From Escherichia coli (GTDB taxonomy: Bacteria; Pseudomonadota; Gammaproteobacteria; Enterobacterales; Enterobacteriaceae): DNA of 1,552 nt. Shown here one piece after another: positions 51-1,552 of the stretch. The notes beneath the pieces were generated by a model. The model worked only from the letters and a program-made list of their open reading frames with translations. It had not been told where the DNA came from and made no database searches. The stretch's first letter is position 1. Each line of letters opens with the position of its first letter. Where the stretch lies: assembly GCF_013315695.1 (NCBI RefSeq), contig NZ_CP054362.1; one strand, 5' to 3'. Made by a program: the position numbers and the translations under genes.

Positions 51-63
51 ACGCAACAAGGTG

Positions 64-93
64 TTGCACAGATGTGTCATGATGGCTTAGATT
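64..93 (+). promoter_or_regulatory. Putative sigma70 promoter for the rep-like gene: -35 TTGCAC (64-69), 18-bp spacer, -10 TAGATT (88-93)
   Basis: Hexamers chosen by eye; 3/6 and 4/6 matches to consensus, with A2 and T6 of the -10 conserved. An alternative -35 is TTGAAC at 93-98, but it lacks a good -10. Not supported by any transcript data. Confidence 0.3.
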
Positions 94-135: not shown

Positions 136-612
136 ATGTTTATTGATTCAGAAAAACGACTGAAACAACTTTCAGATGAGGCAAAGAAAAACACCGAGGA
201 TCTCGAAGAAGCAAAGAAGAATTCAAGGTTTACACAGGTATCCCCAAAAGGTTGGGAACGCGTTCGAGAGCTGCTGAAGGATAGCCAAGGCATATCAGCA
301 CTGAAGCTGTACTCATTTTTAGCGGAGCATATCGATCCTACGTGTGGCGCTGTCGTTGCGGATCAGCAATTCCTAGCTGAAAAACTTGGAGTTAGCAGAA
401 GCACAATTATTCGTTGGCTCAATTACTTAGAATCAAAAAATGCATTAGTTAGAATCCCCGTTGCTGGTAAGGTTTGTGCGTATGCCCTCGATCCACATGA
501 AGTCTGGAAGGGATACAACACTACGAAAAACCATGCAGCATTTGTCACTAAAACACTGGTCAACAAAGACGGTGATATTCAGCGCCGAATCATGGCCATG
601 TTTTCAAATTGA
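136..612 (+). CDS. repA: Small winged-helix replication initiator protein (RepA/RepL-like), 158 aa, about 18 kDa
   Basis: Only ORF with a proper RBS and ATG start, ending in TGA at 610-612. Its GC content is clearly lower than the downstream DNA. A helix-turn-helix motif is visible at residues ~77-100 (QQFLAEKLGVSRSTIIRWLNYLES, nt 364-435), followed by a wing-like beta region (VRIPVAGKVCAYALDPHEVWKG). Iteron-like repeats sit directly upstream. The Rep call and the symbol are inferred from architecture and motif resemblance, not from a search. Confidence 0.8.
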   Translation: MFIDSEKRLKQLSDEAKKNTEDLEEAKKNSRFTQVSPKGWERVRELLKDSQGISALKLYSFLAEHIDPTCGAVVADQQFLAEKLGVSRSTIIRWLNYLESKNALVRIPVAGKVCAYALDPHEVWKGYNTTKNHAAFVTKTLVNKDGDIQRRIMAMFSN

Positions 613-995: not shown

Positions 996-1106
996 TTAAA
1001 CCCCGCCTCGTGCGTCTGAGAGCTTCTGAGCGCGTTTGAAGGGCTATCTGACGACTCATCCCCGAAAGAACAACAGCGGAATCACCGACAACATGCGAGA
1101 GGTGGC

Positions 1107-1168
1107 ACCGCTCGCCGCAGCCCCAGCGACCGAACGTTAGTGAGCGAGTGGGCGAGGAAGCGGAAGAG
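1107..1168. other. ColE1/pMB1-like conserved non-coding segment, matching the block just downstream of the ColE1 replication origin; candidate lagging-strand priming (primosome assembly) region
   Basis: accgctcgccgcagcc...gtgagcgag...gcgaggaagcggaagag closely matches the pBR322/pUC backbone sequence as I remember it. No RNA I/RNA II-like sequence precedes it. The priming-site function is an inference. Confidence 0.45.
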
Positions 1169-1204
1169 AACCGGAAACCACATTGAGCACGTACGCACTG
1201 ATAC

Positions 1205-1229
1205 GGGGTGTCGGGGCGAAGCCCTGACC
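1205..1229. repeat. Left arm of a perfect 25-bp inverted repeat (ggggtgtcggggcgaagccctgacc)
   Basis: Exact reverse complement of 1434-1458, separated by 204 bp. Confidence 0.9.
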
Positions 1230-1397
1230 AGATGGCAAACGGAATATCGTCGCGGGTGACGGTATTACATTTGCACATCCTGTCCCGATTTCTGCGGGGG
1301 TTAACGGTGAACGGACGGCAAAAAACGTGCAGGAGCTGTTGAACGTGAAAACCACGAAATCTGGCAAAAATCACGGCTGGCGAGGCTTGCAGAGGAG

Positions 1398-1458
1398 TAA
1401 GCCAGTATACACTCCGCTATCGCTACGTGACTGGGTCAGGGCTTCGCCCCGACACCCC
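1398..1458 (-). other. ColE1/pMB1-type oriT (bom) nick region; predicted nick on the minus strand near 1400-1403 (CTGG/CTTA on that strand)
   Basis: The minus strand reads gggtgtcggggcgaagccctgacccagtcacgtagcgatagcggagtgtatactggctta, nearly identical to the pBR322 bom/nic region as I remember it. Nick position is by analogy with ColE1 relaxase (MbeA) cleavage. No relaxase gene is present in the window. Confidence 0.6.
1434..1458. repeat. Right arm of the perfect 25-bp inverted repeat; this arm belongs to the ColE1-type bom/oriT homology
   Basis: Exact reverse complement of 1205-1229. The sequence corresponds to the bom-proximal pBR322 segment gggtgtcggggcgcagccatgacc with a few substitutions. 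Confidence 0.9.
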
Positions 1459-1460
1459 CA

Positions 1461-1489
1461 AAGGGCGTTGCGTTGCGCGCAACACCCTT
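1461..1489. repeat. Imperfect inverted repeat containing a perfect 12-bp palindrome GTTGCGCGCAAC (1472-1483)
   Basis: The 12-mer is self-complementary. Flanking aaggg (1461-1465) and ccctt (1485-1489) extend the dyad, with a duplicated gttgcg on the left arm. Confidence 0.7.
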
Positions 1490-1490
1490 G

Positions 1491-1552
1491 CCTAGAATAG
1501 ATCTTTTACGCCGATTTGTAAGTTGTTGTTTTTTTAGTGTGTTTTTTGTTTA
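1491..1552. other. AT-rich tract with T-runs; possible DNA unwinding element of the origin if the element is circular and joins to the repeats at 1-66
   Basis: Composition read directly (T7 and T6 runs, gttgttg motif). The origin role is an inference from its position next to the repeats across the putative circular junction. Confidence 0.3.

Follow-up and report, generated by a model that had tools for sequence, protein, structure and literature searches.

To which module of a small plasmid does a GC-rich inverted repeat belong when it sits between an origin of transfer and an origin of replication, and what might it do there? The question is raised by a dyad at positions 1461-1489 of a 1,552-bp DNA sequence from Escherichia coli (the window, meaning the whole stretch that was analyzed), which is a complete circular plasmid of the Col(MG828)/pKL1 family. 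A sequence-only reading had singled out a 12-bp palindrome in the dyad and proposed that it could serve replication, transfer, or both. This 1.5-kb E. coli plasmid is very common and occurs in hundreds of complete genomes. Full-length matches with 100% identity comprised many 1,552-bp plasmids of E. coli, Klebsiella, and E. fergusonii, among them pJJ1886_1 and the VR50 plasmid, and PLSDB types the matching 1,552-bp plasmids as Col(MG828). The sole gene, repA (136-612, plus strand), encodes a 158-aa initiator of the winged-helix HTH_36 type that matches RepL weakly and does not differ from the Rep of 1,549-bp pKL1-size plasmids; much of the non-coding region at 613-1200 is ColE1-like. Burian et al. 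(1997, 1999, 2003) reportedly described pKL1 / Col(MG828) as 1.5-kb cryptic plasmids of E. coli. No function for the dyad was found in the accessible literature, a set from which the primary pKL1 papers were absent.

Relatives of this plasmid were found both in larger replicons and as fragments. The pKL1-type replicon occurs together with an oriT, MbeB/MbeD mobilization genes, and an AAA ATPase in a 6.6-kb plasmid (L001, CP100069.1), and inside a mosaic with ColE1-like segments in a 5.6-kb plasmid (L025/L023). The modules thus recombine freely, and the 1.5-kb plasmid is one of their arrangements. Near-identical copies were also recovered as 0.4-2.3-kb contigs (L068, L073, L074, L077, L078, L080, L081, L085, L087, L091, L092, and L096) labelled as Streptococcus, Clostridium, Flagellimonas, Bradyrhizobium, Rhizobium, Corynebacterium, Micromonospora, Acinetobacter, and other hosts, and the "Corynebacterium renale" plasmid record NC_004833.1 is near-identical to the window as well. 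These off-taxon copies most likely reflect laboratory or sequencing contamination or a mislabelled host. A 1123-bp record, a candidate natural mini-derivative, was linear, incomplete, and uninformative.

The palindrome (GTTGCGCGCAAC, 1472-1483) does lie within a longer imperfect dyad, as the sequence-only reading had noted. Folding programs pair the 12-nt left arm of the dyad (AAGGGCGTTGCG, 1461-1472) with its 12-nt right arm (CGCAACACCCTT, 1478-1489) around a 5-nt loop (1473-1477), which is TTGCG in the window. The only mismatch, C1466·A1484, is a G·T pair when read on the minus strand. The two symmetries have different centers, 1475 for the dyad and 1477/1478 for the 12-mer. Perfect 12-bp palindromes arose at a rate of 0.38 per dinucleotide-shuffled sequence, with at least one in 33% of shuffles; the palindrome is thus a chance-level by-product of the loop allele TTGCG, offset from the dyad center and restricted to the 1552/1551-bp sublineage. 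Dyad-like arms (12 nt, at most one mismatch, loop of 0-8 nt) appeared in ~2.7% of shuffles, and the 29-base dyad is a real, above-chance, but ordinary hairpin-forming repeat. Folded as single-stranded DNA, it reached -11.0 (plus strand; z -2.6) and -13.1 kcal/mol (minus strand; z -3.6), and the RNA folds gave -18.2 (plus strand) and about -19 to -21 kcal/mol (minus strand).

Variation among relatives separates the stem from its center. We gathered the region from complete plasmids and 48 metagenome contigs, with the conserved flank TAGAATAGATCTTTTACG, not the dyad, as the anchor. The idea that the palindrome is conserved in close relatives did not hold: GTTGCACGCAAC (G1477A), the form of the 1,549-bp pKL1 type, stands in roughly one half of the 333 plasmid records that hold the region, and further loop alleles exist (TTGCG, TTGCA, TCGCG, TTTCA, CTCAA, CGCAA, CTGAG, and TTGAG overall). 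A palindrome that varies among otherwise conserved relatives is, by the standard set in the sequence-only reading, not the functional unit. Within the window's own lineage, all five loop positions were polymorphic vs three of the 24 stem positions. The arms were preserved across relatives. In an alignment of 11 distinct haplotypes, standard pairs occupied 94.7% of pair positions (just 33-49% when the pairing was shifted by 1-3 columns), and both sides had changed in three stem pairs, a number that just 2 of 500 shuffles reached. The C1466·A1484 mismatch is replaced by T-A in L013, L014, and L042 and by C-G in L026, and in the pEc45_4 lineage (L005) the outer stem has gone from GG/CC to AA/TT with compensation. 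Exact loop flips on identical perfect arms were observed twice, TTGCG (L042) vs CGCAA (L014) and TTGAG (L021) vs CTCAA (L013). The stem therefore persists while the sequence and orientation of the loop are free, and stem changes are compensatory or repair the mismatch. Stem positions were no more conserved than the flanks.

Quasipalindrome hot spots of template switching in E. coli and flip inversions of hairpin loops are both known. The natural variants of the dyad show both features, perfecting the imperfect repeat in either direction and inverting the loop exactly. Template switching mediated by a hairpin would be expected to leave such a pattern, which indicates that the hairpin forms in vivo.

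Does the dyad belong to an origin of transfer? The window holds two convergent oriTs that share an identical 25-nt arm (GGGGTGTCGGGGCGAAGCCCTGACC), one of the IncI1 (R64/nikA-nikB) type at 1205-1290 on the plus strand (...TTGCACATCCTGTCCCG) and one of the ColE1/bom type at 1398-1458 on the minus strand. The core of the latter, from nick region to outer arm, is conserved, and its outer arm (1434-1458, minus strand) is the neighboring module of the dyad. The dyad begins 2 nt past this arm. The predicted ColE1-type nick, presumably at about 1402|1401 as judged from pBR322 nic, has the dyad on its 5' side on the minus strand, and this placement on the nicked strand was read correctly from the sequence. 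The suggestion attached to that placement, that relaxosome accessory proteins bind there, was not supported. When compared with ColE1-family oriTs, as the sequence-only reading had advised, the dyad fell outside the homology, which in more than 4,700 plasmid records extends from 1398 to 1457-1462 and ends at the arm. The second copy of the arm (1205-1229, plus strand) starts the IncI1-type oriT, and window positions 1202-1291 are 90-92% identical to the sequence directly upstream of nikA-nikB in IncI1/B/O plasmids. Since nikA of the IncI1 plasmid pJIE174 begins ~11 nt past the arm, no element of that oriT lies further out than the arm; the IncI1 homology, too, stops there. The identical arm is followed by unrelated sequence in L011 and L012 (RepL-type), L019, L028, L037, and ColE1-like plasmids. 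The dyad is therefore not part of that oriT module: it lies outside the conserved oriT of the ColE1 superfamily and does not co-occur with oriT on other replicons.

Several further observations concern this part of the plasmid. The two perfectly complementary arms, near opposite ends of the nicked transferred strand, could pair into a panhandle. In the metagenome contig L035 (1-124, compared with window 1205-1328 plus 1434-1458), the segment between the arms is inverted, and the IncI1-type nick region abuts the dyad-proximal arm. One context of the ~60 examined had this arrangement, which is either an assembly artefact or an inversion isomer that arose naturally when the 25-bp inverted repeats recombined. 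Beside the inverse arm, window 1080-1200 (minus strand; CTCTTCCGCTTCCTCGCCCACTCGCTCAC...GGCTGCGGCGAGCGG) is widespread in many small plasmids and presumably resembles the pBR322 bom-ori segment carrying primosome-assembly sites. A likeness between GGGTGTTG in the dyad and the repeat GGGTGTTGG next to pBR322 bom was dismissed as coincidental, other ColE1-like plasmids differing there. The window plasmid resembles pBuzz in its two opposed oriTs: pBuzz, as cited in PMC9282650, measures 1,982 bp, carries two oriTs in inverse orientation, and is mobilized by a B/O plasmid.

On its other side, the dyad is linked to the replication origin. The AT-rich part of the pKL1-type oriV (1490-1552, plus strand), with TAGAATAGATCTTTT (GATC at 1500-1503) and an IHF-like site at 1519-1531, accompanied the dyad in 333 of 333 plasmid records; AGATCT lies 10 nt and the IHF-like site 30 nt from the dyad. 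According to one report, the pKL1 oriV lies upstream of rep and holds an IHF box together with several sites bound by Rep (PMC3832669). The 5.6-kb plasmid L025/L023, recovered from two independent metagenomes, is 98.4% homologous to the window from position 1454 onward, through dyad and AT-rich region to the iterons and rep; a ColE1-type oriT-like sequence comes no nearer than ~510 nt. The replication-module option of the sequence-only reading is borne out in this physical sense, with the dyad traveling with oriV and rep where no oriT arm adjoins it. When the genomes of 100,044 species were scanned for the dyad with a free loop, the matches were either pKL1-type plasmids, many of them in assemblies of unlikely taxa, or unrelated GC hairpins with A/T runs on their flanks, for instance in Streptomyces and cyanobacteria. 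The simplest view of these hairpins is that they are terminators or arose by chance, and the scan added no new context. Because the dyad always occurs with the AT-rich flank and moves with oriV and rep, it is the left edge of the oriV module: the 29-bp inverted repeat is the outer edge of the pKL1/Col(MG828) origin, abutting the outer arm of the ColE1-type oriT. Within the adjoining AT-rich part, TAGAATAGATCT with its Dam site (GATC, 1500-1503) is conserved even in RepL-like relatives, and the IHF-like site has one mismatch in the window and is a perfect consensus in L005, L007, and L008.

Physical membership in the origin leaves the question of whether Rep recognizes the dyad. The iterons (TGTCGCATCC) lie within 1-66 on the plus strand, at 3-12 and 28-37 and, inverted, at 39-48. 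The same stretch contains a small dyad, GCAACA-AGG-TGTTGC (52-66, plus strand), which overlaps a DnaA-box-like sequence (TGTTGCACA, 62-70, one mismatch) and a possible -35 element, TTGCAC. The GTTGCG/CGCAAC motif that the palindrome was said to share with the repeats at 1-66 is present there in part: CGCAAC occurs once (52-57), GTTGCG is absent, with just GTGTTGC found (60-66), and the iterons lack the motif. The only sequence common to the 29-nt dyad and the 52-66 dyad is the 7-mer CGCAACA/GTGTTGC, in which the iterons have no share, and direct comparison confirmed that the 29-nt dyad is unlike TGTCGCATCC. In pEc45_4, Rep is 78% identical, the iterons (GTTAGCTCACGCATGTGTG) are unrelated, and the promoter-proximal palindrome is different, and its lineage retains the inner half-sites GTGTTxCG/CGCAACAC, the outer pairs having changed with compensation. 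The dyad thus does not change along with Rep and iteron specificity, and a link to Rep binding through the shared motif is not supported. Judged from sequence, the dyad is not a Rep iteron.

More distant Rep relatives differ in what occupies this position. The RepL-like L011 and L012 (Rep 42% identical) keep the flanks AAAAAAGTG|CTTT, followed by GATAGATCTTT, without a hairpin; replication of related origins therefore does not need it. Their sequence (L011:1730-1760 and the L012 equivalent) equals the pEc45_4 dyad (L005:181-215) minus its central 17 nt, which suggests that the center of the palindrome was deleted or, conversely, inserted. In L004, L006, L007, and L008 (Rep 66-80% identical), non-homologous GC hairpins stand upstream of a conserved IHF-consensus site (TAAGTTATTGATT). 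In L006 the hairpin reads CCCGCC-TTTC-GGCGGG and runs into CATTTTT on the minus strand; no other site in that plasmid is terminator-like.

Scans for known signals returned little at the dyad. Rfam gave no match anywhere in the window on either strand at E up to 1, and a terminator scan of the window left the dyad unflagged. As a putative Rho-independent terminator it has the stable GC-rich stem-loop and lacks the U-rich tract 3' of the stem: the minus-strand stem is followed by UUU and then GGGGG in the window, by U4 in the 1551-bp type, and by U6 in pEc45_4, and the plus-strand stem by UU. Hairpins with an identical stem in unrelated genomes have A/T-run flanks like those of classical terminators. 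A relaxed scan for a promoter feeding the dyad from either side found no site above shuffle level; the -10-like TAGAAT (1493-1498) was set aside, since pairing it with the -35 TTGCGT would need a 19-nt spacer. The dyad contains no DnaA box, the nearest DnaA-like box being that at 62-70. A XerCD site (psi/cer/dif-like) was also rejected: GTTGCGCGCAA resembles a XerC arm (three mismatches to dif), with no XerD arm within range and no conservation in relatives.

We tentatively favor, at less than even confidence, a structural explanation, in which the dyad is a stem-loop that bounds the AT-rich region of the origin, as a GC clamp and/or a weak minus-strand terminator. It would then act as a boundary or insulator between oriV and oriT. 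A GC-rich clamp or extrudable hairpin could limit the spread of origin unwinding, and the minus-strand hairpin with U3 (U4 or U6 in relatives) might, as a weak factor-independent terminator, stop leftward transcription from the rep/ori control region before it enters the relaxosome site. This reading draws on the above-chance anatomy of the dyad and on the GC-rich segments beside the AT-rich region in the RK2, RSF1010, and pPS10 origins; on the pairing that is kept through double changes at three pairs, the repaired mismatch, and the hypervariable, flipping loop; on linkage to oriV that is independent of Rep specificity, as in pEc45_4 with its compensated dyad and minus-strand T6; and on the positional analogues, GC hairpins upstream of the IHF/AT-rich region in Rep relatives. 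It is weakened by the 3-nt minus-strand U-tract, the missing terminator flag, and the want of a convincing promoter into the dyad. A GC clamp, moreover, needs no dyad symmetry, and L011/L012 do without the hairpin. The dyad is probably not essential. The stem is no more conserved than its flanks, and template-switch correction could keep the pairing without selection. Nearly as likely is that the dyad is a neutral quasipalindrome at a module junction, with no cis function, in which intramolecular template switching keeps or perfects the pairing and flips the loop. Correction of the mismatch in both directions, two exact loop inversions, a loop that is a mutational hot spot, stem conservation not above that of the flanks, the hairpin-free L011/L012 with their intact flanks, and the silence of the promoter, terminator, and Rfam scans all agree with this possibility. 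Against it, the dyad is retained in all ~330 family records, the diverged pEc45_4 lineage keeps it with two compensatory pairs, and the non-homologous hairpins at the same position in distant Rep relatives suggest a recurrent need.

The remaining explanations assign the dyad to transfer, to a protein, or to single-stranded DNA. That it extends the oriT, as an accessory-protein site of the MbeC/NikA ribbon-helix-helix type or as a second T-strand hairpin aiding transfer termination, seems unlikely. In favor of such a role are its distance of just 2 nt from the outer arm, its place on the 5' side of the nick in the nicked strand, the better folding of the minus (transferred) strand, the union of the window replicon, oriT, and Mbe genes in L001, and the recurrence, on direct reading, of the arm motif GGGTGTYG in the dyad. 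Yet thousands of ColE1-type oriTs, and the IncI1 oriT too, are homologous exactly as far as the arm, nikA of pJIE174 leaves nothing further out, the arm is joined to unrelated sequence in L011, L012, L019, L028, L037, and ColE1-like plasmids, and the dyad stands apart from oriT in L025/L023. Improbable to a like degree is a palindromic double-stranded site for a dimeric protein (RepA at an auxiliary origin or operator, or a host factor), with half-sites GGGYGTTGCG and a free 5-bp spacer. Conserved half-sites around a variable center fit this picture, CAAGG(G)TGTTGC occurs in the dyad (minus strand) and at 56-66 beside the rep promoter, and PMC3832669 reports several Rep binding sites in the pKL1 oriV. 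The dyad is unlike the iterons, however; pEc45_4 keeps the inner half-site GTGTTxCG/CGCAACAC despite its different iterons, Rep, and promoter-proximal palindrome, and RepL-like relatives lack the dyad. We doubt still more that it is a single-strand signal, a hairpin that, after transfer or at a fork, recruits priming or loading beside oriV from the transferred strand or the lagging-strand template. The location at the oriT-oriV junction, the stability of the hairpin as single-stranded DNA, and the mutational signature of hairpin formation in vivo would accord with that. At 29 nt, however, the dyad is far below the size of the known sso, ssi, and Frpo elements, its varying and inverting loop implies that no strand-specific signal is present, and a ColE1-like pas-type region already exists at about 1080-1170. 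The most speculative proposal, to which we give very little credence, couples transfer to replication: on the incoming minus strand, the dyad would fold by the oriT arm and nucleate complementary-strand priming or the loading of RepA or a host factor at oriV. If this were true, it would help a gene-poor plasmid to establish itself in recipients, and the loop flips would be a by-product of single-stranded life.

The plasmid family, both oriT types, and hairpins at origin edges as a general idea are all known already, and the significance for biology at large is small. What the analysis clarifies is the modular map, in which oriT ends at the 25-nt arm and oriV starts with the hairpin dyad. Beyond that, the natural variants of the dyad show cleanly how a quasipalindrome is corrected and its loop inverted in a high-copy plasmid. 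If the hairpin insulates oriV from oriT, it would be useful for minimal-vector design; otherwise, it is an ordinary structural repeat.

Set beside known systems, the window plasmid is a member of the pKL1 / Col(MG828) family, whose 333 records all carry the dyad; it differs from the 1549-bp pKL1 type in having the perfect palindrome where the latter has GTTGCACGCAAC. Like the oriTs of ColE1 (bom) and IncI1 (R64-type), it presents the common 25-nt arm, which the dyad adjoins 5' of the nick on the nicked strand; the dyad itself, however, is outside the conserved part of both and does not accompany them in other replicons. With Rho-independent terminators it shares a GC-rich stem of 10-12 bp, a short loop, an upstream A-run, and a downstream T-run (minus strand), and it differs from classical ones in a U-tract of only UUU in the window and in being unflagged by the scan. 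The template-switch hot spots of E. coli quasipalindromes are matched in three respects, the imperfect short inverted repeat, perfecting in two directions, and exact loop inversion; such switching describes a mutational behavior, not a function, and a function of the dyad is compatible with it. GC-rich segments flank the AT-rich region in the origins of RK2, RSF1010, and pPS10, where, as here, a GC-rich element lies beside the AT-rich/IHF region and away from the iterons. Those elements have a poorly understood role and are not defined as dyads, whereas in the pKL1-type origin the dyad symmetry is maintained.
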